Below, piece by piece: positions 7,520 to 64,000 of a stretch of 64,000 nt of DNA. How positions within the stretch are numbered: position 1 is the first letter of the stretch; each line of letters begins with the position of its first letter. The DNA is from Candidatus Brockarchaeota archaeon (GTDB taxonomy: Archaea > Thermoproteota > EX4484-205 > JAAOZP01). The position numbers were made by a program, and so were the translations under genes. The stretch covers positions 68,507 to 132,506 of the forward strand of contig JAFNIX010000004.1 in NCBI GenBank assembly GCA_017601225.1, in the 5' to 3' direction. A model generated the notes under the pieces. The model searched no databases. It saw nothing but the letters and a program-made list of their open reading frames with translations, and was not told where the DNA came from.

Positions 7520-7530
7520 GGGGATGCAGA

Positions 7531-14342: not shown

Positions 14343-14452
14343 CCGTTTTTACCGAACGGAGGCTTTTAAAGAGGCTTTTAAACCTTCCATTTGAATCACC
14401 TTTAAAAGCGGCAGAGAATTGACAGAAGATAAAAAACGGGGAAGACGTTTCG

Positions 14453-17440
14453 CTAAAGGTTTTTCTCGTAAATAACTATTTCCGCCTTCTCCAGTCCAAA
14501 CGGTTTTAAAACGTACTCGTCAGTCCAGTGTCTCTCATCCTCGAAAGTCTCCGGCCCTATGTAGAGAGGATCTCCCCCAGCATAGTGCAACGGCCCGAAA
14601 GCATTTCTCAGCGTCCCAATAATCCTCACTTTAAGCTCGTTAACCCCCTTTCTCACCAGTCTTGTCACGTCAAGAGTGAAAGGATGCATGAAGACCCTGC
14701 CGGCCTCCTGACCGTTTATATAGACTAAGGCGAGCGAAGCCTTTAAGCCATCCAGCCTTAGGACAACTGTCTTACTGCCAGGGTCTTCACCGTATTGAAA
14801 CTCGTTTCTCAGCTCGAAAGAGCCGACGTAAAACGGGTAGCCCTGTTTAGTCAGATCACCAGTTTCAACCCGAGTAGGTTCCTCAACGATCACTGGGTTT
14901 TTCCCGGAGGAGAGCTCAACCCCAAACTCCCCGATGAGAAAAATGTTCTCCATTTCAGGCTCGATTCCGACGATCCCTTCAAGCTCAATCTCGTTCCTAC
15001 CCTCCTTCAAATATTCGGTCACGCTCATCACCCTGAGGCAGTCGTCAACCCAGTGTCCTTCATCCCTCCAGAGAGCGTCTTTCCCGTTTATCCTAATCTT
15101 GAACAGGCGGGGTGTCTCCATGACCAGCTTAATCCTCTTCCCTAGAGGAGTGGTTTTCAACTCGAAATCGAATTTTAAAGTAAACCTTGTTCTAACACCT
15201 TCTGCAACTATCTGTTTTCTCGCCCTGCAAAGAGGCATTTTTTCACTCCACTCGCCACCCGTCCTATATCTACAATAGTCTAAAACCAGCACGTTAGGAT
15301 CGACCCGTTTAACATTCCAGTCTGAAGAAAGAGGTATTAGCGTGCATGCTCTTTCCCTAGGCTTGACGAGCATGCTCCTCGGCTTTCCCGGTGAGAAAGC
15401 AAGCAGGAGAGAGGAAACAGGCTCAAAAACATGCTCGAGATACGTCCAGCCGTTTTCAACATATCCTTCAAACTCAGATGCTGAGCCGCTTAGAGTATCC
15501 AGCAGTTTAATGCTGAAAGAGCCGGGAAGCCCGATTCTAGCGTTCACAGCCTTATCCCTGCTCGCGTTGAAAACGAATAGAAACATGTCGCCAGAATCGC
15601 CTCTCCTCAAATGGTATAGGAGATTACCCTCTTCATCGCCGTCTATTTTCAAAGTTTTACAGCGATCTGGCAAAACATCGCTCAAGGATTTCGTGCTGTA
15701 ATCCTCTTTAACTGTACACCTGTTGATGAGCTCAGCTAGCTCTACGCTCGGCTTTCCATCAATCAAGCTGGGAAGCGGTTTAACGAACACTAACTCGCCA
15801 CCTGAATCTTTAAACTTCTTTAAAAGCTTAACCGTGCTTCCAGCTAGCGTTAAGCAAGGCGGCACTACTACGATATCATAGAAAGCGTTCCCCACCCTAA
15901 GCCTAGAGCCTTCCACACTGGCGTGTTTCTCCATAAGCATCTCGTCGCCAAGATCGAAGTCAATGTGCAGCTTCAGTAGTGACATTAACAACCCTTTAAG
16001 CTGACTGTCCAGAATCTTTACAGTGGAATCGTTCAGAGGAGAGTAGCTTGCCCAAGCGCTTCCAATCGAATGGATAACAAGCACGTTTACGACCCTCCTC
16101 CCGCTGGAAAGCACGTAGCAAAGTCTTGAGAAGTGGTCCTCTATGTACTCGTTGTAATCCCACCATGGTTGACCCCAGTGGAAGTTCAACCCGTAGTCCC
16201 TTTTCCTCCTACCCCTCATCGAGTAGGGAACCAGATGGTGGCACATCAAGTTCACGCCCATTGTTATAAGCCAGTCGCCAATCCACTTCCTGTCCTCGAA
16301 AGTCGGGTAGTTACCGGTGCAACCGTAGACTTCGCAGAGAACCCTTTCCTTCCCAAGCTGGTTCGCCGCAGAGGAAACCTGTTTAGCAGTTAGCAGGCTC
16401 CTCCAGACATGCATGCCCAAGTGGTCTATTCCAGGAACATGCTGATACTCGTAATGAGGCATCGCTGCGCCTATGCGGATTGTTTGACCTAGAAGATCGT
16501 CCTCGCTCAAATAGTGGCCGGTAAACTTCAAATTGTTCTTATCACACCACTCGTATATCTGTTTTGAGAAAGACTCTAGGAAGAGAATGGTAACAGTCCT
16601 CCAGAAGTCATACCGCACTTTCATATAGTCGTCAAGATCGAAGAAAAGCTTCGGAAGATGATCTGTCAAATCATACCCGTTTAACTGCTTGAACTTCTCC
16701 GGAAGCCCATCTGTCCATGGGACTGAGAACGGGGGGATTCTCGGCCCTCTGGGGGGCATAGCTTGCCTAGGGGGCGGTCTGCTTGACGAGAAGTTAGGCT
16801 CATCCGTGAAAACCCCTGGGACAGTTCTTCCAATATCATTCTTAAAAAGGTCGACGTAAGGCTTGTAGGCAAGGTTTAAGAATTGTCTGACTGTTTCGTA
16901 ATCAAGAAGGTCAACGTAGCACGAGCTGTTGTACCAGGCCTCGCCGACTGGTGCCACGTATTTCATGAAGGTTAGATAGAGCTTCTCCGAATCCGCCTCC
17001 TCTCCAGTAACCCTCTTAAATCCCCTTGGAATACCGTTTTCATCTGTAACGCATTCGAAGCTTGCTATGACGTCTTCACCCTTGTAGTTTCTCGTATCAA
17101 CCATCATGACAAGTGCTTTAGCCCTATTTTTTGAGCTTGAAAAAGGGACAAGACCTCCTGCGAAGCCTGAGGGCCACCAGAGCTCATCGTAAATCCAGAT
17201 GAACATGTCGTTTTTCCCAGCTTCTTCAACTGCAGCTCTGAAAGCGTCGAACCACTCCTTGCTGAGGAAAGGGGTTACGAGGCCTTCTCTAGCGTGGAAA
17301 AATGCGCCGCCGTATCCAGCCCTGTTCAGGCATTGAACCTCCTTCCTAACCTTATCCTCAGTTAACAGATCGTTTATCGACCAGAACGGAGCGCCTTTAA
17401 AGATTGAAACAGGTTTTCTAAATTTATTTTCTTCTATCAT
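14453..17440 (-). CDS. Large uncharacterised glycoside-hydrolase-like protein
   Basis: 995 aa with no signal peptide. The N-terminal FWSINDLLTEDKVRKEVQCLNRAGYGGAFFHAREGL resembles a family usually annotated only as glycosyl hydrolase. The C-terminus looks like beta-sandwich, galactose-binding-type domains. The family assignment is uncertain. Confidence 0.45.
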   Translation of the reverse strand: MIEENKFRKPVSIFKGAPFWSINDLLTEDKVRKEVQCLNRAGYGGAFFHAREGLVTPFLSKEWFDAFRAAVEEAGKNDMFIWIYDELWWPSGFAGGLVPFSSSKNRAKALVMMVDTRNYKGEDVIASFECVTDENGIPRGFKRVTGEEADSEKLYLTFMKYVAPVGEAWYNSSCYVDLLDYETVRQFLNLAYKPYVDLFKNDIGRTVPGVFTDEPNFSSSRPPPRQAMPPRGPRIPPFSVPWTDGLPEKFKQLNGYDLTDHLPKLFFDLDDYMKVRYDFWRTVTILFLESFSKQIYEWCDKNNLKFTGHYLSEDDLLGQTIRIGAAMPHYEYQHVPGIDHLGMHVWRSLLTAKQVSSAANQLGKERVLCEVYGCTGNYPTFEDRKWIGDWLITMGVNLMCHHLVPYSMRGRRKRDYGLNFHWGQPWWDYNEYIEDHFSRLCYVLSSGRRVVNVLVIHSIGSAWASYSPLNDSTVKILDSQLKGLLMSLLKLHIDFDLGDEMLMEKHASVEGSRLRVGNAFYDIVVVPPCLTLAGSTVKLLKKFKDSGGELVFVKPLPSLIDGKPSVELAELINRCTVKEDYSTKSLSDVLPDRCKTLKIDGDEEGNLLYHLRRGDSGDMFLFVFNASRDKAVNARIGLPGSFSIKLLDTLSGSASEFEGYVENGWTYLEHVFEPVSSLLLAFSPGKPRSMLVKPRERACTLIPLSSDWNVKRVDPNVLVLDYCRYRTGGEWSEKMPLCRARKQIVAEGVRTRFTLKFDFELKTTPLGKRIKLVMETPRLFKIRINGKDALWRDEGHWVDDCLRVMSVTEYLKEGRNEIELEGIVGIEPEMENIFLIGEFGVELSSGKNPVIVEEPTRVETGDLTKQGYPFYVGSFELRNEFQYGEDPGSKTVVLRLDGLKASLALVYINGQEAGRVFMHPFTLDVTRLVRKGVNELKVRIIGTLRNAFGPLHYAGGDPLYIGPETFEDERHWTDEYVLKPFGLEKAEIVIYEKNL

Positions 17441-33650: not shown

Positions 33651-35498
33651 ATGCCCCTGGTAACTGTTCAACCCGAAGGTGTTAGAGTTCAGGCTCCCTA
33701 TGGGGCAAATCTATTAGCTGTGCTTAAAGAAGCAGGTGTTAACATTGAAAGCGTTTGCGGAGGGCGTGGAGTTTGTAAAAAATGCGTCGTCGAAGTTGTC
33801 AGCGGCGGGTTGACTGAGCCAACCTCGATGGAAGCAGAGGTAAGAAGCCTTTCGGAATCGTTCAGACTAGCCTGCCAGGCGCGAATCATTGGTGATATCA
33901 CTCTCAAGGTTCCTCAAACCTCTAGACAAACCAGGGGGAAGATACTGGAATGGGGGCGTGTTAAAGATTTCGGGTTTTACCCTGCAACAAGAAGCGTGAA
34001 CATTAAGATAGATGCCCCATCGCTCACCGACCAGAGGTCCGATGCTGAACGCCTCCTGCAAGCATTGAATGCGAAATCTATTGACAGGCTGCTCCTTAAG
34101 AAGCTGCCCGGTAAACTGCGTGAATTAAAATGGTACTTGGAGGCGATTCTGCATGAGGATGAAATCCTGGATGTTAGACCGCAGCGTGACCAGGACCTTT
34201 ACGGTGTTGCTGTAGACGTGGGCACCACCACGGTTGTCGCCTACCTGGTCAGCCTGAAAACCGGGCGAATCGTCTCCGTAAAATCGGATTACAATGGTCA
34301 GATAGCTTATGGTGACGACGTGATATCTAGGATAACCTACGCTGTGAAAGGAGGCAAGAACCTAGAGGAGCTTCAAAGCAAAATAGTGGCGACGATAAAC
34401 AAATTGATTCAGGATGCGGCTGATGAAGCTAAATGCTCTCCCTTCGACGTTTACGAATTATCCTTCGCTGGAAACACAGTTATGACTAGTCTCCTATATG
34501 GAGCGGAGGTTTCGGCGATAGCAGCAGCCCCCTATGTGCCACCTTTCAGGTCCAGCCTATGCTTCAAGGCTAGAGAAATAGGTCTTAGAGTTAATGATTC
34601 TGCGATTGGTTACACTTTTCCGTTAATCAGCGGCTATGTTGGGGGAGACGTGGTTGCGGACATACTTGTTTCAGGAATGCACGAGCAGGATGAGAAATCC
34701 CTCCTCATAGACCTTGGAACCAACGGTGAAGTCGTCTTGAAAGCGGGGGATCTGATGCTCGCGTCCTCCACAGCTGCGGGACCAGCTATTGAAGGAGCCG
34801 GGCTTTCAAACGGAATGAGAGGGATGGATGGTGCGATAGAATCGGTTTCGATTAACGTGGAGAACTTCGACGTTTACTATAAGACGATAGGCGACACGGA
34901 TCCGAGAGGAATATGTGGCTCCGGAGTTGTTGACGCAGTAGCATGGATGCTTATAGCCGGAGTTTTAGACCAGAAGGGAAGGATTGTTGACTTAAATATT
35001 CCGAGGATTGTGAATACGGGTGGAGATAAGGCCTTCGTGTTAGCGGTTAATAAGGAGGGTCGAAGAATCTGCATAACGCAGACAGACATCAGGAGTTTTC
35101 AACTTGCTAAGGCAGCCATATTTACTGCATGCCTACTACTTCTAAGGATTGGAGGGGTAAGTTTGAGCGAGATATCTAAAGTATACATTGCAGGAGCCTT
35201 TGGAAACTATATTGATCCAAGGTCTGCAATGATAGTTGGCATGATCCCTGAGCTTCCTTTAAGCAAAATTGTACAGATAGGAAATGGTTCAGGCCAAGGT
35301 GCAGTAATGAGCCTTCTTTCCAGAAAAGCGAGGGAAGAGGCTGAAATCGTGGCTAGGAAAGTGAGGGCTATCGATTTAAATACGCTCCGCGAGTTTCAAA
35401 GCGAATTCATTGATGCAACACTATTCCCCCATAAGAAAACGGGCATGTTTCCGAGAGTGATGAAGGCTATAAGTATGAAGACTCCTTTGCTGGATTAA
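33651..35498 (+). CDS. Corrinoid reductive activase (RACo/AcsV-like: 2Fe-2S ferredoxin plus ASKHA ATPase)
   Basis: N-terminal CGGRGVCKKC...LACQ plant-type ferredoxin motif. The rest is actin-like ATPase (VAVDVGTTT, LIDLGTNGE, GICGSG). 615 aa. Confidence 0.75.
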   Translation: MPLVTVQPEGVRVQAPYGANLLAVLKEAGVNIESVCGGRGVCKKCVVEVVSGGLTEPTSMEAEVRSLSESFRLACQARIIGDITLKVPQTSRQTRGKILEWGRVKDFGFYPATRSVNIKIDAPSLTDQRSDAERLLQALNAKSIDRLLLKKLPGKLRELKWYLEAILHEDEILDVRPQRDQDLYGVAVDVGTTTVVAYLVSLKTGRIVSVKSDYNGQIAYGDDVISRITYAVKGGKNLEELQSKIVATINKLIQDAADEAKCSPFDVYELSFAGNTVMTSLLYGAEVSAIAAAPYVPPFRSSLCFKAREIGLRVNDSAIGYTFPLISGYVGGDVVADILVSGMHEQDEKSLLIDLGTNGEVVLKAGDLMLASSTAAGPAIEGAGLSNGMRGMDGAIESVSINVENFDVYYKTIGDTDPRGICGSGVVDAVAWMLIAGVLDQKGRIVDLNIPRIVNTGGDKAFVLAVNKEGRRICITQTDIRSFQLAKAAIFTACLLLLRIGGVSLSEISKVYIAGAFGNYIDPRSAMIVGMIPELPLSKIVQIGNGSGQGAVMSLLSRKAREEAEIVARKVRAIDLNTLREFQSEFIDATLFPHKKTGMFPRVMKAISMKTPLLD

Positions 35499-36862
35499 GG
35501 CCAATAATCCTTTTCTCTGAAGGTTGGCACCTTCTCAGTAAAAGTCCTACACATCTGTTCTCTGAACGTTTCCATTTCATCCGGAAGAGAATTAATAATC
35601 CTCTTAACGCGAGATAGGAAACGGGCCTCGGGAGGGTTTATTTTTAGGAATGACGAAGCCTCAAGAAGCTCAACCGTTTTTCTGCATGCAGAAACGACTC
35701 TTCTATAGTAATCACCATGCTCGGAGACTATAGCGTTTGCAATCTCGATAGCTACATCTGGAGAGAGAACCAGCGCTTGAGGGTCGCCAAACTTATCCGA
35801 TAGGACAAACATATCTCTGAGCTCCAAAGCTTTACCAAGCATTATTGCTTCATTCATCAGCTTGCAATCGTAATATAGTATTTCTAGGAAAACCTGTGGC
35901 GCTGATCCTCCGAAAAGCCTTATGTTTTCAACCTGCTCGTTTGACCATAGATCGCAGCATGCGGAAGCAATATTCCCTACCAGACTGGAATGCGCGCAAG
36001 CACTGCTTTTTCCCTCCATCGACATTGGGACCCCAGTTACTGCTTTCAGAATCACGTTTTCATAGCCGCAGTCCTTCCCCGGGCCTGTTGCCCCTTGTTC
36101 ATAGGCAACTAGAGATCTGGCTGCCGACATGGCTCTCACTATTGCGGCAAGTGTGTGAGGCAGAGACATTGATTTAACACCGCCTGCAAGCTTCATCGCT
36201 GTGTTTGCGATAGCGCAAGCAGTATCCCCGCCCGCTATACAACCGTTTCTCCTTGCAACCTTAACGATATCATTCCAAAGAAAGCCCATGTCTAAAGATG
36301 CTAATAGGATTGAAAAGACTATTCCTTCAATATCCTGTCTAATTATGCTGTGGTTAAAAATGTCTTTACCTCCTTCTGATTCTATCGACAGAACGTCTGC
36401 ACCATTGGAAGAAACAGCGTCAAAAGTGTCCATCATGAGATTATAGTTTGCGGTTGTTCTTAAGCCTTCTCGGAAATCCCTTATGTCGGCAACCGTAACC
36501 CTGAACCCCAGTTTTATACCATGTTCGTCGAAATATTTTTCCATCAACGCTTTTTGAAGACTTGCTATTTCAGCAGCAAGCATAGGGTTCTTAGTTTCCA
36601 TGAATGTCAGCTCAGTCTCTATTTGAAGAGATGGAATGCCGAGTTCAACAGCCCTTTCAAGTATCTCTCTCGTTATAGTTTGAACCTCAGTTTTAAACCC
36701 GATGGGATTATTACCTGAAAAAACCCTTGGGAAAAATTTCACTTCTGGAATTACCTCTCCTTTTCCAACATTAAGCCCGAGACCATAATTCAAAGGATGT
36801 TTAGCCGACCCGAATATTAATTCGGAAGGCTTTTCTATCTCTAATTTACTGAATAAAACCAT
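35495..36862 (-). CDS. mtaB: MtaB-family methanol(-like substrate):corrinoid methyltransferase
   Basis: 455 aa. The N-terminal third (FGSAKHPLNYGLGLNVGKGEVIPEVKF...LQIETELTF...EKYFDEHGIKLGFRVTVADIRDF) parallels methanogen MtaB as I remember it. It lies directly upstream of a corrinoid protein gene. Confidence 0.6.
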   Translation of the reverse strand: MVLFSKLEIEKPSELIFGSAKHPLNYGLGLNVGKGEVIPEVKFFPRVFSGNNPIGFKTEVQTITREILERAVELGIPSLQIETELTFMETKNPMLAAEIASLQKALMEKYFDEHGIKLGFRVTVADIRDFREGLRTTANYNLMMDTFDAVSSNGADVLSIESEGGKDIFNHSIIRQDIEGIVFSILLASLDMGFLWNDIVKVARRNGCIAGGDTACAIANTAMKLAGGVKSMSLPHTLAAIVRAMSAARSLVAYEQGATGPGKDCGYENVILKAVTGVPMSMEGKSSACAHSSLVGNIASACCDLWSNEQVENIRLFGGSAPQVFLEILYYDCKLMNEAIMLGKALELRDMFVLSDKFGDPQALVLSPDVAIEIANAIVSEHGDYYRRVVSACRKTVELLEASSFLKINPPEARFLSRVKRIINSLPDEMETFREQMCRTFTEKVPTFREKDYWP

Positions 36863-36896
36863 TACGCTTGCCCTCTGATTTAACAGCCCTTATTTT

Positions 36897-37544
36897 TTAC
36901 TTCTTGCCTACCCAAGCCTTGCAAATATCTACCCCGACTACAGCATCCTTACCATAACCGTCGGCACCTATCCTCTTAGCATACTCCTCTGTTATCGGAG
37001 CCCCGCCTATTATTACTTTAACCTTTTCCCGTACGCCAGCTTTCTCAAGCTCTTTTATCACGTTCTCCATTTCGACCATCGTAACAGTGAGGAGTGCCGA
37101 CATACCCACAATGTCAGGCTTATGGTTCTTCACAGCCTCTACAAAAGCTTCAGCCGGAACATCGTTACCAAGATCTATGACTTCAAACCCGGCTGCTTCA
37201 AGCATCATTCCGAAAATATTCTTACCGATATCGTGAAGATCACCCTTAACGGTTCCTATTACAACCTTGCCTATCTTCTTAATTTCCGAGCCCTTCATGT
37301 AGGGCTGCAACATTTGGGATATTTCCTTGCCTATTTCACCCGCAACAATCAGCTCTGACAGAAAGTATTCCGATGCCTCGAACTTTCTCCCAACCTCCTC
37401 CATGGCGGAGCTTATTGCTTTAGTAATGATCTCGTTAGGCGGTATCCCTTTCGCAACAGCCTCCTGTGCTAGACGCTTAGAGCCGTCGAAATCCAGGTTA
37501 ACTATAGCATCTTTAAGTCTCGTAAGTAGACCTACCTCGGACAT
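36897..37544 (-). CDS. mtaC: Cobalamin-binding corrinoid protein (MtaC-like)
   Basis: GDLHDIGKNI (DxHxxG), MSALLTVTM (SxL) and VIIGGAPI (GG) B12-binding motifs after a helical cap domain. 215 aa. Confidence 0.85.
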   Translation of the reverse strand: MSEVGLLTRLKDAIVNLDFDGSKRLAQEAVAKGIPPNEIITKAISSAMEEVGRKFEASEYFLSELIVAGEIGKEISQMLQPYMKGSEIKKIGKVVIGTVKGDLHDIGKNIFGMMLEAAGFEVIDLGNDVPAEAFVEAVKNHKPDIVGMSALLTVTMVEMENVIKELEKAGVREKVKVIIGGAPITEEYAKRIGADGYGKDAVVGVDICKAWVGKK

Positions 37545-55982: not shown

Positions 55983-56270
55983 GTAATCTTAGTAGGAAAA
56001 GCGTTTAAAAAGCTTAACAGTTGGCCAACGTGAAAAAACACCTATAACTCTGAGGACAATGTCAGACACCTACCAAGGTGAATCACAGCCACTGGGCTTG
56101 GGATAGCCCGGGGCTCGAGGATCTTCAGAGTCTTGCTTTAGAAGAAAACAATTGAGAAGCAGAGGAACGAATGTTAACAGCATGAGAGGCCGCTCCCCGT
56201 TTGGAACAATGCTTTTTCACACCATATTTGACCACGGTTTTGAAACTCAATTTTAAATAGGACTGTTGGT

Positions 56271-57494
56271 ATGTGCTTCCCGAGGAAAGTGTCGAGGATC
56301 AGCATTTTTATACTCTTGCCGATGCTCCTGACTTCAACGATGCGGATTACGCCGAATGCTTCAACCTCTTCTGTGAAAAAGGATTTCTTCGTAGGAGTCT
56401 GGCTGGGAATGTATAGCGACTATTGGCCCAGTGAGAAAACAGAATGGTTGAGAAAGGTCGACGAATCCTTCATGTCCCTCAGGGAGGCAGGAGTCGACGC
56501 CATCTACTTTCTAGCTAAAGACCCTTGGGGATATGTTTACTATGAATCCAAGTATGCTCCATTATCCGAGAAATACAGTTGGGATCCTTTGAGAGAGGTT
56601 GTGGCGAAAGCTAGGGAACACGGGCTTCAAATATATCCGTATGTAAACGCACTGGCTGAAGGAGAAAGTCAGCCGAACTTCTATCTGAAAGAGCATCCTG
56701 AGTTAGCGGTTTCGCCAGCAAACGGTGAAAACGGTTGGGTCGACCCGTCTAGCGAAGAATATGTTGATAGACTGCTATCCATCATTGAAGAAATCGTTTC
56801 AAACTATGATGTTGACGGAGTACAGTTGGACAGGATAAGAATGCCAAGCCCAGTAATCAGGGCGAAAGCCAGTGAAAAACTCTATATGGAGACAACCGGC
56901 CTCTCACCAGGCAGCGACGAAAAAAAGTGGCAGGAATTCGTTAAAAGCCAGGTTTCTAAAGTTGTGCAGAAAGTATGCGAAAAAGTTAAGTCGATAGACA
57001 GGGGCCTGAAGTTTTCTGCCGCGGTTTTCCCCTCTCCTTCGAACGCGGCTGTAAACCAGCTTCAAGACTGGAGGAAGTGGGTTGAAGAAGGATGGGTTGA
57101 CTACGTGTGCACCATGGCTTACGCACAAGGGTTCTACGTCTTCAAGTCTTACGTTGATGAGGAGAAGATGGCTTGCGAGCCTGAAAAACTATACGTGGGG
57201 ATAGGTGCATGGCAATTGTCACCCTCTGAACTGAAAAAACAGATAAAGTATGTTGCAGTGGACTCAGGGCTGCCCGGGGTGCTCTTGTTCAACGCGGATT
57301 CTCTACTCAGCAACAGGGAGCTTCTTAACGCTGTAAGGGAAGCAAAAGACGGAAAGTTTGAAGAAGACTCATCATTCTTCACAAATCTGTTTAGCACAGC
57401 CTCGGTAATAATATTGTTCTGTGCAACACTGTCCTTGTTCTACCAGCTTAGGAAGAAGCCTGGGAAAAACGTTTCTCAGAAGAAAGCTTATTAG
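56271..57494 (+). CDS. GHL10-like protein with a signal/anchor and a C-terminal TM helix
   Basis: VDGVQLDRIRMPSP and GWVDYVCTMAY parallel the divergent neighbour. The C-terminus carries a hydrophobic helix followed by a basic tail. Confidence 0.5.
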   Translation: MCFPRKVSRISIFILLPMLLTSTMRITPNASTSSVKKDFFVGVWLGMYSDYWPSEKTEWLRKVDESFMSLREAGVDAIYFLAKDPWGYVYYESKYAPLSEKYSWDPLREVVAKAREHGLQIYPYVNALAEGESQPNFYLKEHPELAVSPANGENGWVDPSSEEYVDRLLSIIEEIVSNYDVDGVQLDRIRMPSPVIRAKASEKLYMETTGLSPGSDEKKWQEFVKSQVSKVVQKVCEKVKSIDRGLKFSAAVFPSPSNAAVNQLQDWRKWVEEGWVDYVCTMAYAQGFYVFKSYVDEEKMACEPEKLYVGIGAWQLSPSELKKQIKYVAVDSGLPGVLLFNADSLLSNRELLNAVREAKDGKFEEDSSFFTNLFSTASVIILFCATLSLFYQLRKKPGKNVSQKKAY

Positions 57495-57516
57495 ACTAAT
57501 AGGCTTTCAAAGAGTA

Positions 57517-59472
57517 ATGCTCAGGATAAAGGTGAACTCTAAGCTTCTAGAGGCCGGCGACAAGATTAAACTGACGATTAGACCAGGAAGGAAGGCTCCG
57601 GGAAAGATAAGGCTTTTGAAACCCGGCGGTGAACCCTTAGAGGTTGAAACAAGACTAGGGGGAAACGTTGCTACAGTCACCTACTCAGACACAGATAGGA
57701 AGGGTCTTTACGTGTTCAACATTAAGACGAATAGCAAGACGTACAAGAAATGGGTGATGGTTGGGAGCATGATGCTGGACTGGTATAGTGTTTCTGAGGA
57801 AAATGGCCGAGAAGACGTTATAAAATATCTCGATTCCTTCTCACACATCGGGAACGTGATTGTACTACACAACATAACTGGGCCTATGAAAACACTATAC
57901 CCTAGTAGAAGGTTTCCAGTCGCCAGTAAGCAGGATCCAGATTTCTTCGACTTTTTCTTGAAGGAGACCGCTAGAAGAGGCTGCGCAGTCCTTTTCTCAT
58001 ACCATTGGGTTCCAGAGACCCATGTTGACATGTGGAGGTTTCCATCCAGAGAGCAGACCTCTCAGGCCAAGATGGTGATAAGAGAACTGTATCAGCTCTA
58101 TTCCAACTATGACTCTATGGCTGGGTTCTACTCATACTGGGAGCCGGGAGACACTGCCGAACTTCCTTACTACAAAGAAACCCTAGACTATGTTAAGAAG
58201 CTGGACGACGGGCTTTTCACTGCAGCAGCACCATACTTGTTCTCAACCGAGAAATACCATGGAGGCTCATTACCATTAATGTTTTCAGCTTTATCAACTG
58301 TTGGAAGCCTGGATTGCTTAATACCTCAGTCCAGTGTGGCAGTATACCCTTATCCTTTGAACAAGACTAAGGATCATGCCGCTCTAGCCGTAGGCTCCTC
58401 AACCCCCCTAGGGAAAATCGTGCTTGGCCATGTTGAAACGTTCGCAAGGGTTTTCGTGGAAAACGAGAGGGCTCCTCCTGTAGAATTCATCAAGGGCCAG
58501 GTTTTAAGCGCATCGTTCACGAGAGGTGCTCACGGAGCTTCAACATTCATCTACTCGTTATTGTTCAAAAGGGATGAGAATACTGTTCGCTCTTTCGAAG
58601 AGGCTGTCAGGTGGCTTAAGGAAATCAGCATGTTTCGAAGAAAGCTGAGCCCAGTTGGGATCTACGCACCCTTAGACCCTGATCATTGGCCAACTGTTCT
58701 GAGTCCATTCCTGAGGAAGCTCCGGACGCTCGGTTTGGACGCTAGTGTATTGCAGCCGCCGCTCTGCAAGAATGAAAAATGGGAGAGGTTTGTTGAAGAC
58801 AATATTAGGGTAATAGTATTGCCAGATCCTCCAGAGTTAAACGAGTCTGAAACGAGGTTTTTGGGAAATTATTTGAAGAAAGGAGGGTCGATCATTGTCC
58901 TAGGCTACCCGCCTAAGGGTCTTAGACGCCTCCTAGGGGTGGAGAGCAGGAACATTGGTAAATATGGGGGTTTGAAACTGTTGGAAAAGATGGCTGACAG
59001 GGTTCCCGCAGGCACCCTCAAAAGGTTTGGTTTTGAACTCGTGTACTGCGTGACTCCGACAGAGGCAAAGCCCATAGGGGTCTATGAGTCAATACCCTCC
59101 GGGTTCCAGCCTGGCGCATACGGGATCACGAGGATGGAGAGCAGGGGAGGATGCAGGGTATTCATAGGAATACCCTCTGCAGTGGTTCTGGAAAAAGTAC
59201 CGGAACTGCTTTTAGACGCGGTTGATTCAGTGCTTTCCAGATCTGGCCTAAGGATCCCGTGGGAGATTCATGGATTGACTGAGGATTGCGACTCACTCGT
59301 TGGAGAAGACTTCATCCTGGTGGTGAACCTTTCCGAAGGAGAAATAAAGGTGACAGCCAAGCACAGGGGTGAGAACCCGCCAGCCTCCTTCGAGCTAATG
59401 GGCAGCCACCAAGGACACGTGAAGCTCGACAGGGACCGTTTAAAATTACCCTTAAGCCGTTCGAACCCATAG
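57517..59472 (+). CDS. DUF4434-like glycoside-hydrolase-type TIM-barrel protein with a C-terminal GATase1-like domain (tentative)
   Basis: The ORF opens at 57421 inside the upstream gene; ATG 57517 removes the overlap. The SMAGFYSYWEPGD segment and a later VIVLPDPPELNESE...GGSIIVLG segment are suggestive only. Confidence 0.4.
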   Translation: MLRIKVNSKLLEAGDKIKLTIRPGRKAPGKIRLLKPGGEPLEVETRLGGNVATVTYSDTDRKGLYVFNIKTNSKTYKKWVMVGSMMLDWYSVSEENGREDVIKYLDSFSHIGNVIVLHNITGPMKTLYPSRRFPVASKQDPDFFDFFLKETARRGCAVLFSYHWVPETHVDMWRFPSREQTSQAKMVIRELYQLYSNYDSMAGFYSYWEPGDTAELPYYKETLDYVKKLDDGLFTAAAPYLFSTEKYHGGSLPLMFSALSTVGSLDCLIPQSSVAVYPYPLNKTKDHAALAVGSSTPLGKIVLGHVETFARVFVENERAPPVEFIKGQVLSASFTRGAHGASTFIYSLLFKRDENTVRSFEEAVRWLKEISMFRRKLSPVGIYAPLDPDHWPTVLSPFLRKLRTLGLDASVLQPPLCKNEKWERFVEDNIRVIVLPDPPELNESETRFLGNYLKKGGSIIVLGYPPKGLRRLLGVESRNIGKYGGLKLLEKMADRVPAGTLKRFGFELVYCVTPTEAKPIGVYESIPSGFQPGAYGITRMESRGGCRVFIGIPSAVVLEKVPELLLDAVDSVLSRSGLRIPWEIHGLTEDCDSLVGEDFILVVNLSEGEIKVTAKHRGENPPASFELMGSHQGHVKLDRDRLKLPLSRSNP

Positions 59473-59527
59473 GTGTGAAGCTGGTTTTTTAACAGTTTCT
59501 TCCTAAAAATAAGTCTTATAGAAAGAA

Positions 59528-59675
59528 CTAGCGCATGCTTCACGTTTCTTATCCTTATTTTCGGCACGATCCGACCCGCCCCATTCCTAGTCCTCTTGCT
59601 GACAGCGTCTACGGATCGAAGCATCTTAAGGACCATGCTTCCAGCACGATGTTTTTTCCCAGAATCTCTCCCCGC
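59528..59675 (-). pseudogene. Relic 3' end of a TldD/PmbA-family gene (left direct repeat)
   Basis: The minus-strand translation VLKMLRSVDAVSKRTRNGAGRIVPKIRIRNVK aligns ungapped, 22/32 identical, with the C-terminus of the intact gene at 63634+. There is no upstream gene body. A 1-nt indel removes the stop, producing the read-through ORF 59268..59636. Confidence 0.6.
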
Positions 59676-59774
59676 TCAGCTACTAGCTTTTCGACTCCTA
59701 GTGTATACTGATAAGCTGACAAGAATCCTTTAATTTTTTATAATAATATATTTTATATATGCCTAAAAATTAAG

Positions 59775-59782
59775 TTTAAATA
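59775..59782 (+). promoter_or_regulatory. TATA-like box TTTAAATA (a second, TTTTATATAT, lies at 59751-59760)
   Basis: It lies within an extremely AT-rich stretch (59730-59790), with its 3' end 23 nt upstream of ATG 59805. Confidence 0.4.
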
Positions 59783-59804
59783 TTGCCATACGAAGACCTA
59801 TTGG

Positions 59805-59963
59805 ATGCTCAGCATACGTGCTATAGAGAAAGCACCCCAAGAAAGTTATGAGGCTCCTAAAGTGTTTTCACCCCTGCCAGGAGAACCAGTAGAACCATGT
59901 GGACACGCGCATGCCCATCTCAAGTATGTTGCAGATGCAGACTACGATACCTCCCCAACATAA
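59805..59963 (+). CDS. Candidate RiPP precursor peptide (52 aa, not in the ORF track)
   Basis: My own translation: MLSIRAIEKAPQESYEAPKVFSPLPGEPVEPCGHAHAHLKYVADADYDTSPT. It uses the first ATG after the in-frame stop at 59712-59714 and ends 9-12 nt before the maturase start on the same strand. Confidence 0.4.
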   Translation: MLSIRAIEKAPQESYEAPKVFSPLPGEPVEPCGHAHAHLKYVADADYDTSPT

Positions 59964-59975
59964 GATTGTATATTG

Positions 59976-61343
59976 ATGACAGGAATTTCAACAGATGATG
60001 TTTTTTCTCCAAGCCTTGGAACAAAATTACTCCAAAAAAGAGGAATTAAATATTTCTTGCTAATCAATCCAAACCTATTTTCTTGTGCAAGAATTAACCA
60101 GACCGCACGCGAGATATTTGAACTTTGTAATGGAACAAATAGCTTAGAAGACATTTCGAAAATTCTCTCCAATAAATACGGTATTGATCTTGAAAGATTG
60201 AGAAAAGATGTGGTTCAAACTACTGAGTTGCTCTATTCCTATGGTTTGCTAGTACGTCCTAATGATCCTAATCCGATTCCTCAAGACATGTTTCGAGTAG
60301 GTAACTTGGAAGAAGTCTGGATAAATGTAACCAATAAATGTAACCTGCATTGCCTGACATGTTTCAAAAATGCTGGAACCAAGTATCCAAGAGAATTAAC
60401 GGTTGAAGAAATCGAAAGTCTTGTTAAAGAAATTTCATCGAATTTTCATCATCTGACTGTAATAATTAGCGGAGGCGAGCCTACTCTAAGAGAAGACCTG
60501 ATTCATATTTTAAAAGTGATAAAGGATAACATGTTAAAGGTACATTTAATTACCAATGGCACACTGTTGACCAGGAGCATGATAAGTGAATGGAAAAGTA
60601 TTGGGGTTGATTTCGTGCAAGTTAGTTTGGACGGAAGTAAACCCGAAGTTAACGATGTCATAAGGGGGGAAGGCATTTTTCAACAAGTAGTAAACAACGT
60701 AAAGTTATTAAAGGAATTTGATCTTCGGTTCAGTTTATATCCAACAATTTGCAAACTCAATTTGGAGGACGTGCCAAACATGATAAAACTTTTTAGCGAA
60801 ATAACTGGTAGATCGCGGTTTAGCGCAGCGTTTTTTGCTCCTGTTGGAAGAGGTTCAATTAACGAAGGAGATCTCGCAGTGAGTTCAGATGATTATATCG
60901 AGTTGTTTAAGAGAATAATTAAAGACAAAAGATTAAGCCCCATGATGAGAAATTTAGAAGGTTTTGAGTCCCAAATAGATAGAGTCCCACCTAATTTGAC
61001 GAGAAAATTGAATTGTGGTCTTGGAACAGCTACCATAAGCATAGATGCAGATGGCTCAGTTTATCCCTGCCATTGGTTACATTTACCTCAATATAAGGCA
61101 GGAAACATAAGAGAAAGACGGTTCTCCGAGCTCTATTTTAAATCTGAAGTCTTACAAAGACTTCGAGGAATACGTGTGGATAAACTTGAAAATTGTGCAG
61201 AGTGTGAGATACGCTATCTCTGCGGAGGTGGTTGCAGAGCTCTTGCACTCATTAAGAATGGTTCCCTAGAAGCCAGATTTCCTTATTGTGATTTCTTTAA
61301 ATTCTATTTTGACCATGCATTATGGGGAGTGTGGGACCTGTAA
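59976..61343 (+). CDS. Radical SAM / SPASM peptide maturase with an N-terminal PqqD-like RRE domain
   Basis: The N-terminal ~95 aa (INQTAREIFELCNGTNSLEDISKILSNKYGIDLERLRKDVVQTTELLYSYGLLV) are PqqD-like. CNLHCLTC is the CxxxCxxC motif, with SGGEPTL nearby. C-terminal SPASM: CGLGTATISIDADGSVYPCH...CAECEIRYLCGGGCRA. TTG 59973 is an alternative start. Confidence 0.85.
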   Translation: MTGISTDDVFSPSLGTKLLQKRGIKYFLLINPNLFSCARINQTAREIFELCNGTNSLEDISKILSNKYGIDLERLRKDVVQTTELLYSYGLLVRPNDPNPIPQDMFRVGNLEEVWINVTNKCNLHCLTCFKNAGTKYPRELTVEEIESLVKEISSNFHHLTVIISGGEPTLREDLIHILKVIKDNMLKVHLITNGTLLTRSMISEWKSIGVDFVQVSLDGSKPEVNDVIRGEGIFQQVVNNVKLLKEFDLRFSLYPTICKLNLEDVPNMIKLFSEITGRSRFSAAFFAPVGRGSINEGDLAVSSDDYIELFKRIIKDKRLSPMMRNLEGFESQIDRVPPNLTRKLNCGLGTATISIDADGSVYPCHWLHLPQYKAGNIRERRFSELYFKSEVLQRLRGIRVDKLENCAECEIRYLCGGGCRALALIKNGSLEARFPYCDFFKFYFDHALWGVWDL

Positions 61344-61344
61344 A

Positions 61345-62427
61345 ATGAATGCTATAGAAACCCAAAACCTCACAAGAGTGTTTGAAAGATATAACTATAC
61401 TGACACGCAGGTAAGTATGGATAGAGAGGATAATCCGGGCGGCCTATTTTTGTCGCTTTATAACAGATACTTCAATAAAAATGTCAAAAAAGAGACGATC
61501 TATGCGGTTAATGAAGTAAGTATCAAAGTGAAAAAAGGTCAGTTAGTTTGCATTCTAGGGCCAAATGGATGTGGAAAAACAACCTTGTTAAGAGTCCTTG
61601 CGACCCTATTGAAGCCAACTCAAGGAACTGCCTACATCATGGGTCATGATGTCGTTAAAGAAGAAAAAGTGATCTGGAGATATGTAACCTATGTGGCCGG
61701 ATTGCTTACCGGGGGGGCTTGGATGGATTTCCGCCTTACGCCAAAGGATATTCTCACGATTCAAGCGAGGCTGTATGGTTTTCCGGAAGAAAGGATCAGA
61801 GACGCGCTTGAACTTTCAAGACTTATAGATGTCGCAAATGTTAGGGTCTCCACATTTTCCACAGGCATGCTTGCTAGGCTCTCCGTCGCAATAGGTTTGC
61901 TGAGGGACTCGCCGGTCTACCTTTTAGATGAACCTATGGTTGGAATTTCAAAGGATGTTACTGAAGAGTTATATTCTTACGTGAAAAATAATATTCAAAA
62001 AAGGGCAGGAGCCACATTCTTATATGCGACAAATAACGTACTTGAAGCTCAACGTCTAGCTGATGAGATCATAATGATGTATAGGGGTAAGGTTATTGCC
62101 CAAGGAAAGGTAGATGAACTCATTACAAAGTTCTTTAAAGAACAAGCGATCGATATCGAAATTTCCAATTGTTCGTCCGATATCTTAAAGTCGATAGATA
62201 GTCTACCGAAAGTCTCAAAGATAATAAATCTTACAAGCAAAAACGAATCTGATATTACTTTAGTGATATACACTGCATCCCCCAGAGAGATTTTACCAAT
62301 CCTAATTCGAGAGATTTTAGAAAAGAATGGAGAGATCAGATACATAAAAGTTCGCGAGCCCACTTTAGAAGATGTCTTTATCAAAGTTATGAAAGAAAAA
62401 TCGAAGGAGGGTGAAGTTGCAAGTTGA
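61345..62427 (+). CDS. ABC transporter ATP-binding protein (ABC-2 type) with a C-terminal accessory domain
   Basis: GPNGCGKTT Walker A, FSTGMLARLS signature variant, VYLLDEP Walker B. ATG 61345 starts 1 nt after the maturase stop. The track ORF opens at 61288 inside the maturase gene. Confidence 0.8.
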   Translation: MNAIETQNLTRVFERYNYTDTQVSMDREDNPGGLFLSLYNRYFNKNVKKETIYAVNEVSIKVKKGQLVCILGPNGCGKTTLLRVLATLLKPTQGTAYIMGHDVVKEEKVIWRYVTYVAGLLTGGAWMDFRLTPKDILTIQARLYGFPEERIRDALELSRLIDVANVRVSTFSTGMLARLSVAIGLLRDSPVYLLDEPMVGISKDVTEELYSYVKNNIQKRAGATFLYATNNVLEAQRLADEIIMMYRGKVIAQGKVDELITKFFKEQAIDIEISNCSSDILKSIDSLPKVSKIINLTSKNESDITLVIYTASPREILPILIREILEKNGEIRYIKVREPTLEDVFIKVMKEKSKEGEVAS

Positions 62428-63293
62428 GATTTCAGCAACTATGTACAAAGATCCGATTTTACATGCATCACTTCTTCAGATTCTTTATCTTTAATCTATT
62501 AATGCGGTATTATTGGATGGAGTGGATGTTGCCTTTCCACATCGTTAATCTGATTATCGGAGTATCCACATGGATATTCTTCGCCAACACCTTTGGAAGT
62601 TCCAGTCCATTTCTTCAAAATTATGGTAATGATTTCATCTCGTTTTTAATTTTGGGTTTAATGTTTAATAGCCTGTTTGCCTATACTCTAGATGGCTTTC
62701 GCATTTCGACACTTCTTTTCTTGAGGGGAAGGATTGGGAGCATGGGACAGCATTTAAGCATGTACGATTATGTAAAACTTTGTGGAATACCGGTCTCCGT
62801 GCCAATTCTCGCATGGTTAATTGACGGCTATATAGAGACATCTATAACTTTACTTGTTTACCTTATCGCCGGCATTATCTTCGGTCTAAATATTGGTTCT
62901 GGTAATTATCTTGTAGCGCTTGTCGGCATATTGATTGGATTGTTTGCAGTGGCAGGAATTGGACTACTTTCAGCAAGCATGATAACGATTGCTGGAGCTT
63001 GGAAAGGAATCGAACCTATAAGTTGGCTCGTCAAATTGTTAGTTGGCTTACTGGCAGGCGTGTATTTTCCGACAGAAGCACTTCCAGATAGTCTGCAACT
63101 TATTTCTCTACTATTACCACATACCTATGCACTTAAGATAGCACGAATGGCCCTCTTGACGGGTTTCGGTTTTGAAAGCTTGATCTCAGAGTTTCTAGCA
63201 GTTTCATTAATGAGTTTGATTCTTTTTCCACTTGGGATAATAGTATACAGGTACTCGATCGCTCTGATAAAGATAAAGACGCTCGTTGAATAG
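62424..63293 (+). CDS. ABC-2-type transporter permease
   Basis: 289 aa with about 6 hydrophobic helices. The TTG start overlaps the ATPase TGA (TTGA); ATG 62463 is an alternative. Confidence 0.65.
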   Translation: MRFQQLCTKIRFYMHHFFRFFIFNLLMRYYWMEWMLPFHIVNLIIGVSTWIFFANTFGSSSPFLQNYGNDFISFLILGLMFNSLFAYTLDGFRISTLLFLRGRIGSMGQHLSMYDYVKLCGIPVSVPILAWLIDGYIETSITLLVYLIAGIIFGLNIGSGNYLVALVGILIGLFAVAGIGLLSASMITIAGAWKGIEPISWLVKLLVGLLAGVYFPTEALPDSLQLISLLLPHTYALKIARMALLTGFGFESLISEFLAVSLMSLILFPLGIIVYRYSIALIKIKTLVE

Positions 63294-63310
63294 TTCACTT
63301 CAAGAAACGC

Positions 63311-63326
63311 TTTTTGGCGTTCAAAA
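63311..63326 (+). terminator. Small hairpin with a T-run just after the permease stop
   Basis: AACGC-TTTTTG-GCGTT starts 18 nt after TAG 63291-63293. The stem is weak (5 bp). Confidence 0.25.
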
Positions 63327-63633
63327 CGGACAATATCCTTCTGAAGTAGCAGTTGCGCCATTCGGTTAAGGCCTGTCTCTTAAGGGCGATGAGAGCCAGC
63401 GGGGGCATTCCAATACTGATATGCGAGGGAAGACGACATAGGCTTGGCGCGTTTGTTGACTCCGGGATAGATGCGGCAAAAGTTTAAATTGTTCCAACTG
63501 GAGTATAGCGCGCGCTAGTGTTTTCTAGCGATTGAGGCGTGTGAACAAACTGGCATAGGGTGCTCGGAATCCGGTTTGCGGAGAGGCACTGGGGACTTCG
63601 ATGAGCGCGCGCCATTCAACCATTTTTCGTATC

Positions 63634-63790
63634 CTAACCGCTTACCTTCACTTTTCCTATCCTTATTTTCGGCGCGACCCGCCCCGCCTCGTTCCTAGTC
63701 CTCCTGCCAACAGCGTCCACAGATTGAAGCATTTCAAAAACGGTGCTTCCAACCATAGCGTTCTTCACAGGATGCTTCACCTCCCCGTTT
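63634..63790 (-). repeat. Right direct repeat (3' end of the intact TldD/PmbA gene)
   Basis: It shares the identical 16-mer tatccttattttcggc (63658-63673 versus 59550-59565, 4108 bp apart). By eye, identity is about three quarters over roughly 110-150 nt. Confidence 0.6.
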
Positions 63791-64000
63791 TCAACAAGGA
63801 ACCCGTGGTCGATGAGGCTTGAGATATTAGTTGACCCCCCGACTGGTCCTAATGAACTGTCGTAAACATATATTCCCCGCTTCACGTCTTTAAAGAGCTC
63901 ATCGTCTCCATAATCCCCCGAAGCTATCTGGAGATTAGTTAGGCTGGGCACAGGCTTCTCGGCTAAACTGGGCCTAGCTGCATGCCCATTGTTCTCAATA
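63634..64000 (-). CDS. TldD/PmbA-family metalloprotease, C-terminal part (gene continues beyond the window)
   Basis: LTNLQIASGDYGDDELFKDVKRGIYVYDS..G......NISSLIDHGFLVENGEVKHPVKNAMVGSTVFEMLQSVDAVG......GRVAPKIRIGKVKVSG is a typical TldD/PmbA C-terminus. The frame stays open to position 64000; the M at 63951 in the track is an internal GTG. Confidence 0.75.
   Translation of the reverse strand, partial: IENNGHAARPSLAEKPVPSLTNLQIASGDYGDDELFKDVKRGIYVYDSSLGPVGGSTNISSLIDHGFLVENGEVKHPVKNAMVGSTVFEMLQSVDAVGRRTRNEAGRVAPKIRIGKVKVSG

Follow-up and report, generated by a model that had tools for sequence, protein, structure and literature searches.

A strain-variable, predicted peptide-maturation cassette beside a displaced pmbA gene end in an uncultured archaeon, probably acquired by homology-facilitated illegitimate recombination

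The window analysed here is a stretch of 64,000 nt from a hot-spring archaeon, a Candidatus Brockarchaeota archaeon (assembly GCA_017601225.1, contig JAFNIX010000004.1). Near its right end, AT-rich DNA with a predicted operon for a ribosomally synthesised and post-translationally modified peptide (RiPP) lies between two copies of the 3' end of a pmbA-like gene, an orphan fragment on the left (copy A) and the end of an intact gene on the right (copy B). A preliminary description of this DNA proposed that a mobile element had integrated site-specifically into the 3' end of the gene. The comparisons presented here support that proposal as regards the foreign cargo, an empty site and a gene end that was displaced, but not as regards site-specific integration by a mobile element. 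The cassette is small, horizontally acquired and variable between strains, and it probably arrived by homology-facilitated illegitimate recombination (HFIR; "C-terminal displacement") and not by an integrase of its own. The window thus sets two versions of the pmbA 3' region side by side, with the cassette at the seam. All coordinates are window positions unless a locus label (L001 etc.) is given, and all of the sequences are metagenome-assembled genomes (MAGs) or metagenome contigs.

The pmbA gene end is present twice

Local DNA alignment pairs 59538-59643 with 63646-63751 over 106 nt, without gaps and at ~80% identity. The score of this alignment is 117, and shuffled sequences (n=300) score 18.4±2.2 with a maximum of 26. 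In a separate repeat search the pair lengthens to 128 nt at 77%. Both copies open with a stop triplet, which reads CTA on the plus strand (= TAG) and is located at 59528-59530 and 63634-63636. The longest exact run shared by the two copies is 16 nt (59550-59565 and 63658-63673), and 22 of 32 aligned residues are identical at the protein level. The two same-orientation gene ends, the 16-nt run and the peptide identity had all been given correctly in the preliminary description. The 1-nt indel that it placed near the old stop is actually a net 2-nt deficit, since the copies are offset by 4106 at the stop codons and by 4108 in the core.

The orphan starts at 59528, as first described. BLAST against other species carries it past the ungapped core to ~59665, and by eye it can be followed to ~59695 (LVAERGEI compared with LVENGEV), interrupted by indels and by a frameshift in a run of A. 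The open reading frame (ORF) at 59268-59636, which had been called a spurious read-through, is confirmed as such; it overlaps the convergent 683-aa gene.

The best match of the orphan is the 444-aa PmbA-like paralogue, with an alignment score of 125. The neighbouring 460-aa TldD-like paralogue, with a score of 26, has been ruled out as its source. Over its core, the orphan is 82-86% identical to the alleles of its own species, 78-83% to those of five closer sister species, and 69-70% to those of the two most distant ones. Its differences from the functional alleles are spread over codon positions 1, 2 and 3 as 5:5:9, and substitutions have struck residues that are (nearly) invariant in the closest relatives, such as T to M, NEAG to NGAG, and RIAPK to RIVPK. 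Because all three codon positions and (nearly) invariant residues are affected, the orphan is best described as a decaying pmbA pseudogene remnant; the fragment itself has no function.

The origin of the orphan has been sought in several ways. Among the C-termini of the 20 closest PmbA homologues, none is closer to the orphan than the organism's own copy B (maximum 26/35), and no donor lineage is named from them. A protein search with the reconstructed orphan peptide returned just the spurious ORF in L005; the 50-aa query is too short for the word index, and this result says nothing on a foreign source. A search of metagenome contigs with the orphan peptide gave no confirmed relative. No second orphan fragment was found by self-BLAST of 63294-63640 against the window or by translated comparison of this segment with the neighbouring genes.

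Copy B belongs to a gene that continues beyond the window. PF19289 matches the part inside the window (Table 1), and the full gene in L001-L005 has all three PmbA_TldD domains. The best NCBIfam match of the full-length protein is PmbA, and the HExxxH motif is absent from it. The 460-aa TldD-like partner carries HEAFGH. Neither protein reaches its NCBIfam equivalog cut-off.

Empty, intact and decayed alleles

Nine contigs of near-identical genomes were recovered through their identical neighbouring GHL10 protein, and L028 (GCA_038827035.1) was added through a maturase look-up. L004 is GCA_038880515.1, and L005 is the Logan assembly of run SRR27730047. The MAGs GCA_038862835.1 and GCA_038850585.1 and run SRR21619491 are further sources for this population. 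The extra contigs L025-L027, which contain the GHL10b protein, all stop inside the 683-aa gene and carry no junction information. Empty, intact and deleted alleles are found at the locus in these near-identical genomes (Table 1), and the cargo suspected to be foreign is therefore a real insertion/absence polymorphism. The empty site that had been predicted exists in L004, where the pmbA stop directly adjoins sequence resembling 59473-59527. An assembly artefact is ruled out, because the independent assemblies L005 and L028 have the same intact structure, with 4 differing positions over 59473-63633. In several lineages the cassette is decaying, and it is thus dispensable.

Deletion in L002 has left an additional trace. 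At the junction of its second deletion (L002 13413-13424) the filler is a 12-nt palindrome, TAGCGCGCGCTA, which is identical to 63506-63517. This palindrome occurs once in the window, in the pmbA-downstream DNA to the right of the cassette, 3 kb from the L002 deletion site, which suggests template switching during repair. The left neighbour of the cassette also varies in its integrity. The 683/658-aa gene is intact in the window, L002 and L004, split into pieces of 133 aa and 458 aa in L005 (6251-8033) and L028 (5735-7517), and cut short by the 4.97-kb deletion in L001, L003 and L006. None of the seven sister species has it, and searches with the 683-aa ORF gave no match in Pfam, NCBIfam or PADLOC.

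The comparison of the window with the empty allele of L004 shows a stepwise change in divergence. The two are identical over 56000-58500, and differences begin at 59121, with ~3% divergence over 59121-59477 and ~20% over 59477-59643. In pmbA, divergence is 4-6% in the first 100-300 nt and about 1% beyond. On the repeat core, the 3' end of pmbA in L004 is like copy B, with 96% identity to B vs 82% to A.

A further complication is seen in the last ~110 nt of the window's pmbA (63650-63750). Here the window has the derived, L004-type allele, even though its cassette hardly differs from the L005 and L028 copies. This segment is a polymorphism hot spot with two alleles that differ at 8 of ~100 positions in genomes that are otherwise >99% identical. 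The L004-type patch in the window could be a short recombination tract or a product of MAG strain chimerism. Gene conversion from copy A to copy B has been ruled out as the source of the L005-type allele, because the A-like states of that allele are common to all sister species and are thus ancestral.

Native flanks on both sides of the cassette

We will use the term "flank 2" for the short segment between the 683-aa gene and the orphan, and "flank 1" for the segment between the cassette and the stop of the intact pmbA. By eye in the alignment, flank 2 resembles the DNA that immediately follows the pmbA stop in L004 and, for a shorter length, in L014 and L013. Between the window and L004 it differs at ~12 of 51 positions. 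Because of this resemblance, the orphan is taken as the displaced old gene end, and orphan and flank 2 together represent a former native-style end of the gene.

Flank 1 is homologous to the pmbA-downstream DNA of L015, where the match is contiguous over 520 nt at 79%, and to blocks in L011 and L012; the homology with L011 stops at 63404. A conserved TATA-like block in flank 1 (AAAAGTTTAAATTG) precedes vapB in L011 and L012. In these two loci a vapBC-like pair (PIN plus AbrB/SpoVT) is located directly downstream of pmbA (L011 8457-9139, L012 8473-9206), and the window has no vapBC. Since L011 and L012 have vapBC and the window keeps just its TATA-like block, the space downstream of pmbA is a recurrent site of gene gain and loss. 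The preliminary description had been cautious about the right boundary, as the last 340 bp before the pmbA stop are GC-rich again. This is now explained, as most of that segment is the native flank 1.

Seven sister species, whose PmbA proteins are 70-91% identical, have been compared at this locus. None of them has the cassette beside pmbA, and none has a second pmbA fragment. The source names of the close PmbA relatives are Thermoproteota, Nitrososphaerota or "Candidatus Brockarchaeota" archaeon.

Composition and boundaries

The GC content of 59700-63293 is 38.5%, and equal-sized windows elsewhere have 46.8±1.3% with a minimum of 43.6%. The AT-richness noticed earlier on a few lines of sequence is therefore upheld. 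At third codon positions, the GC content (GC3) of the cassette genes is 0.32-0.40, compared with 0.48-0.57 for their neighbours. On the right, the homology with L011 places the true junction of the cassette in the 110 nt between the permease stop and flank 1 (63294-63403), a segment without similarity elsewhere in the window. No Rfam match was found in the whole window at gathering thresholds or in 59.2-64 kb at E≤1, a range that includes the GC-rich 340 bp.

Mechanism of acquisition

The arrangement is best explained by the arrival of a piece of a relative's chromosome. This piece would have contained the cassette, then ~230 nt of pmbA-downstream DNA, and then the pmbA 3' region. One of its ends would have been joined by homologous recombination within pmbA, and the other by an illegitimate join ~170 nt upstream of the resident pmbA stop. 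In this way pmbA would keep an intact new 3' end, and the old end would be pushed 4.1 kb downstream, where it would still sit on its own flank and decay. Later, finished and empty haplotypes may have been swapped between close strains through ordinary homologous crossovers within pmbA and the 683-aa gene, and microhomology-mediated deletions would account for the loss of the cassette in several strains. Because flank 1 is native in sister species, the incoming DNA likely carried a relative's chromosomal flank and not a phage-type attachment site (attP). Because the divergence between the window and L004 runs from 0 through ~3% and ~20% to 4-6% falling to ~1% in pmbA, the formative event probably took place in another lineage and not in the immediate ancestor of this strain. 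The same pattern fits an exchange of the two haplotypes between strains, and the L004-type patch at the end of the window's pmbA agrees with it.

A recombinase has been looked for in and around the cassette. Pfam scans of the cassette and of the window ORFs of ≥150 aa in 1-46.5 and 54.8-63.3 kb revealed no integrase or transposase domain. For 46.6-54.8 kb and for the 8.5 kb to the right of the window, the precomputed Pfam annotations of the equivalent L001 genes contain none either. The absence of an integrase and a transposase that was first stated for the window is thus sustained, and the suggestion that an integrase might be found beyond position 64000 is not borne out within these 8.5 kb. 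The window also contains no tRNA or tmRNA gene according to a dedicated scan.

These searches bear on the explanation closest to the preliminary description, in which a mobile element with a site-specific recombinase that is encoded elsewhere or has been lost inserted into the pmbA 3' end, with an attP that carried a pmbA-like end and with copies A and B as attL and attR. Several observations agree with it: the same-orientation repeats have their first bases precisely at the stop codons and enclose AT-rich cargo, L004 offers a clean empty site, the 16-nt identical run could be a core, the cassette is clearly mobile between hosts, and a Phage_integrase gene is found ~5.7 kb from the radical S-adenosylmethionine (rSAM) gene of the related cassette in L018. 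However, neither the three intact copies nor the 64-kb window nor the next 8.5 kb yielded a recombinase, and the repeats are just 80-86% identical. The right end consists of ~230 nt that are native to sister chromosomes and are not element DNA. An element that brings its own replacement end should, in the simplest course of events in this species, have left an A-like empty allele, but the empty-site allele is B-like (96% vs 82%), the opposite of the prediction, and the new gene end adjoins the native flank. Related cassettes are also found at unrelated sites, with no convincing flanking repeats where these were tested and no adjacent integrase. We therefore consider integration of this kind unlikely.

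Two other histories have been weighed against HFIR. The cassette arrangement might be ancestral, with the orphan as a relic of an old second pmbA copy and L004 as a precise loss by recombination between A and B. Deletions do occur here, as the two independent derivatives show, direct repeats of 106-128 nt could mediate such a loss, and L004 is the sole empty allele among eight informative assemblies. On the other hand, L004 is B-like up to the stop, and a crossover between A and B in the identical run would leave A-type bases to its left. Nor can a simple deletion yield a flank 2 that differs at ~12 of 51 positions, and the direct contact of the pmbA stop with flank 2 recurs, by eye, in the species of L014 and L013. 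With neither cassette nor second fragment in 7/7 sister species, an ancestral cassette is highly doubtful. The orphan might instead have nothing to do with the arrival of the cassette and be the ragged end of an earlier transfer (683-aa gene, flank 2 and pmbA stub) beside which the cassette landed later. The 683-aa gene is indeed accessory, being missing from the sister loci, and in L014 GHL10b directly adjoins pmbA. In addition, the GHL10b-pmbA and pmbA-tldD spaces form an insertion hot spot, with vapBC in L011/L012, a 204-aa gene, and in L028 another three genes. This history is nevertheless improbable, since it needs two independent events within ~100 nt, and since the 683-aa gene is ~100% identical in both haplotypes apart from its last ~350 nt and hence pre-dates their difference.

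Acquisition by HFIR also has points that weigh against it. No donor arrangement turned up among the loci compared, be it the cassette with flank 1 and pmbA but no orphan, or a pmbA gene that is intact and ends like copy A. The pmbA of the cassette strains is ~1% from that of the empty-site strain, which places the crossover very near the 3' end or calls for later homogenisation. Flank 2 and the orphan lie 15-20% away from their counterparts in the empty-site strain, and the history within the species is accordingly a reconstruction and not an observation. A mixture of strains in a MAG might produce or obscure a short allele patch like that at 63650-63750, and an integrase may have acted in trans. 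With regard to the cargo, the maturase lies under every curated family cut-off, and the peptide and its modification are predictions.

Table 1. Features of the locus in the window and alleles among near-identical genomes
Feature	Position or locus	Strand	Remarks
Left neighbour, hypothetical 683-aa ORF	57421..59472	+	658 aa from 57496 in relatives; last ~350 nt are the left edge of the diverged haplotype
Flank 2, ancestral-type sequence after pmbA stop	59473..59527	.	contiguous with orphan
Orphan pmbA 3' fragment, repeat copy A	59528..59695	-	old TAG stop 59528-59530, net 2-nt deletion, frameshift, indels
AT-rich putative promoter region	59696..59804	+	TATA-like boxes 59752-59759 (TTTATATA) and 59775-59782 (TTTAAATA); GC drop
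Predicted precursor peptide gene, 52 aa	59805..59963	+	MLSIRAIEKAPQESYEAPKVFSPLPGEPVEPCGHAHAHLKYVADADYDTSPT; small ORF conserved upstream of homologous rSAM genes
Predicted peptide maturase, PqqD/RRE + radical SAM + SPASM, 455 aa	59976..61343	+	Pfam PqqD 40-93, Radical_SAM 117-273, SPASM 348-412
ABC transporter ATP-binding subunit, DrrA type	61345..62427	+	Pfam ABC_tran and DrrA1-3_C; NCBIfam drrA subfamily 193 bits, below cut-off
ABC-2-type membrane permease, ORF 289 aa	62424..63293	+	weak NCBIfam drrB and RbbA permease matches
Gap between permease stop and native flank, 110 nt	63294..63403	.	L011 homology ends at 63404
Flank 1, pmbA-downstream DNA native to sister species	63404..63633	.	TATA-like block 63471-63507; 12-nt palindrome 63506-63517
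3' part of intact pmbA-like gene	63634..64000	-	continues beyond window; Pfam PmbA_TldD_3rd 4e-26; full gene 444 aa
Repeat copy B within intact pmbA-like gene	63634 to ~63800	-	
Empty allele	L004		658-aa gene, 35 nt, then pmbA stop
Intact allele	window, L005, L028		cassette; 4 single-nucleotide differences over 59473-63633 (4.16 kb)
Deletion type 1	L001, L003, L006		without 57575-62544 (4.97 kb); TTAA.CTGA microhomology at junction
Deletion type 2	L002		without 59605-59714 (GCTGACA microhomology) and 59804-60546

Predicted RiPP-type operon

The cargo has the gene content of a complete and self-contained RiPP-type operon, with a putative promoter, a precursor, a maturase, and the ATPase and permease of an ATP-binding cassette (ABC) exporter. 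The precursor ORF is also called by gene callers in L005 and L028. In L007, L008, L009/L010 and L019, the homologous rSAM gene is immediately preceded by a small ORF of this kind, with a weaker example in L018. Six loci, from archaea and one WOR-3 bacterium, share the motif YE.PKVF.PLP...H.H.HLKYVADADYD, and the small ORF is accordingly regarded as a genuine precursor gene. In this motif, a conserved leader (YE.PKVF.PLP) is followed by a core, GH.HAHLKYVADADYDTSP, that is rich in His, Tyr and Asp. A literature search for the precursor motif found no paper containing it. Because the lone cysteine of the precursor is not conserved in the other loci, thioether chemistry of the sacti- or ranthipeptide type is unlikely in the predicted product.

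The maturase combines a PqqD-like RiPP recognition element (RRE) with radical SAM and SPASM domains, matched by PF05402, PF04055 (2e-30) and PF13186. It has the cysteine motifs CX3CX2C at residue 122 and CX2CX5CX3C at residue 407. The window's rSAM protein has no exact database record, and the 99%-identical P0001 was used in its place. Among 5.8 billion proteins searched, the closest non-self homologue of the maturase has 60% amino acid identity. Its relatives in the PDB by sequence include anSME, CteB (5wgg), PqqE and SkfB. The named families with which it was compared include WgkB, the StsB sactipeptide and PapB ranthipeptide families, PqqE, MftC, SCIFF and DynA, and it is below every NCBIfam cut-off. 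WgkB is the best of them, with 169 bits vs 650, and PqqE and MftC give 122 vs 381 and 140 vs 265, respectively. Judged by these scores, the maturase stands outside all curated families, and the cassette can be described as a putative, uncharacterised rSAM-SPASM RiPP-type cluster with its own exporter.

The exporter genes are also shared with the relatives. The DrrA-type ATPase is called as 360 aa in L005 and L028. The permease is 255-258 aa as called in relatives, and its gene is found at the same position in L008, L009, L010 and L019. The cassette has no protease gene. Its gene content makes it most likely that the cassette serves to produce a radical-SAM-modified peptide and to export it. 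The maturase presumably cross-links or otherwise modifies the precursor core, and the DrrAB-type exporter may secrete the product or protect the producer.

Related cassettes in other organisms

The rSAM-ABC-permease module is located in unrelated contexts in L008, L009, L010 and L019. The closest homologue, L007, is the source of the maturase with 60% identity. The GC content is 38.5% in the island that holds its cassette and 61.6% in the remainder of the contig; over 6700-8451 it is 31-38%, and the island has a sharp edge just upstream of the precursor gene. By composition, the same low-GC module has entered a very different host in L007. Two of the homologous cassettes were tested for repeats in both flanks: L008 has none, and L009 has a weak 27-nt pair. 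With no convincing flanking repeats in either, duplication of a gene end has been ruled out as a general signature of the cassette. The homologous cassettes at unrelated sites show no adjacent integrase and no common attachment site. In the WOR-3 bacterium of L018 (GCA_039801905.1), as mentioned above, a Phage_integrase gene is found at some distance from the rSAM gene. The cassette of the window was evidently acquired horizontally, and the module is evidently mobile without visible machinery of its own.

The L018 locus (1-2357) differs in its other gene content. An M16 (pitrilysin/PqqF-like) peptidase and a sigma-70 factor precede the precursor/maturase pair. A small DUF4190 membrane protein follows the maturase and replaces the ABC exporter.

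Comparison with known systems

HFIR and orphaned 3' ends have been described for type VI secretion system (T6SS) and Rhs loci (PMC5361080; PMC3240628). As in the C-terminal displacement of Rhs, CdiA and T6SS effector genes, which has been attributed to HFIR, the present locus has an intact gene with a newer 3' end, then imported DNA, and then an older 3' fragment that points the same way. This fragment has kept contact with its old downstream sequence, there is no dedicated recombinase, and one homologous anchor and one illegitimate join would account for the structure. In contrast to these systems, the displaced end is the conserved end of a housekeeping-type protease subunit and not a variable toxin tip with an immunity gene. 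The cargo is convergent and has no functional connection with the 3' end of the gene. Here an archaeon is the host, and there is one orphan.

The locus also resembles integrase-mediated islands bounded by attL and attR, in which direct repeats of a gene 3' end surround foreign cargo, a sister strain has the empty site, and the target gene stays intact. It differs from them in having no integrase, no tRNA gene, and repeats of 80-86% without an exact core of useful length. Moreover, the DNA beside the new end is the native chromosomal flank of relatives, and the other copies share no common attachment site.

With regard to its cargo, the locus resembles the rSAM/SPASM RiPP clusters (streptide/WgkB-type, sactipeptides, ranthipeptides, PqqE/PqqD, MftC). 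They have in common a PqqD/RRE and radical SAM domain with CX3CX2C, the full set of SPASM cysteines, a short precursor gene immediately upstream, an export ATPase and permease downstream, and no protease in the cluster. Unlike the named rSAM RiPP families, the present maturase is far below the family cut-offs and the precursor is rich in His, Tyr and Asp.

The TldD/TldE (PmbA) protease pair processes microcin B17. PmbA-like and TldD-like genes are also present here, adjoining a RiPP cassette that has no leader peptidase of its own. The adjacency is not conserved: TldD/PmbA genes were found near none of six homologous loci. For this reason, the linkage of the cassette with TldD/PmbA is probably accidental. 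A bolder proposal would join several of these elements. It holds that the cassette is the first example from Brockarchaeota of an undescribed RiPP class, defined by the core GH.HAHLKYVADADYDTSP and by an RRE-rSAM-SPASM clade of hot-spring archaea and WOR-3, with TldD/PmbA as leader peptidase and the pmbA 3' end as a preferred, integrase-free landing site. We regard this combination as a long shot.

The footprint and the cluster type are both of known kinds. They do not overturn current understanding and are consistent with ordinary gene gain by recombination. The interest of the locus lies in the fact that one natural archaeal population shows all stages of a cassette, from the empty site through intact copies to two independent routes of decay. 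The orphaned pmbA end would be a molecular fossil that records an arrival without an integrase. To our knowledge, homology-anchored illegitimate recombination has seldom been documented in uncultured archaea, and the locus offers a concrete, checkable candidate example. The cassette also visibly moves between hosts of differing GC, with 38% GC islands in genomes of 47% and 62% GC. As a natural-product lead, the conserved precursor/maturase pair, which lies outside the curated rSAM RiPP families, is a candidate for heterologous expression.

Chromosomal neighbourhood

The rest of the window is ordinary chromosome, with genes for glycoside hydrolases, MoaC, ETF, GMP synthase and similar proteins. 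Past its end, the remainder of pmbA is followed by a 204-aa gene and the TldD-like partner, and then by genes for malic enzyme, DUF488, a metallo-beta-lactamase-fold protein and a transglutaminase. This species (L001 13850-14464) shares the 204-aa gene between pmbA and tldD with the species of L011, L012 and L014. In L013, L015, L016 and L017 the gene is missing, and pmbA and tldD abut. L028 has three further genes between pmbA and tldD (13911-16944), which encode proteins of 305 aa (with a weak PADLOC 'TGT' match), 294 aa, and 411 aa with HTH_3. They represent a further insertion that varies between strains.

A separate cluster in the window (33651-37544) contains MtaB (methanol:cobalamin methyltransferase B, 2e-171), an MtaC-like B12-binding protein and the RACo corrinoid activase. 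This is a methylotrophy gene set in a non-methanogen lineage of the Thermoproteota/Brockarchaeota type.

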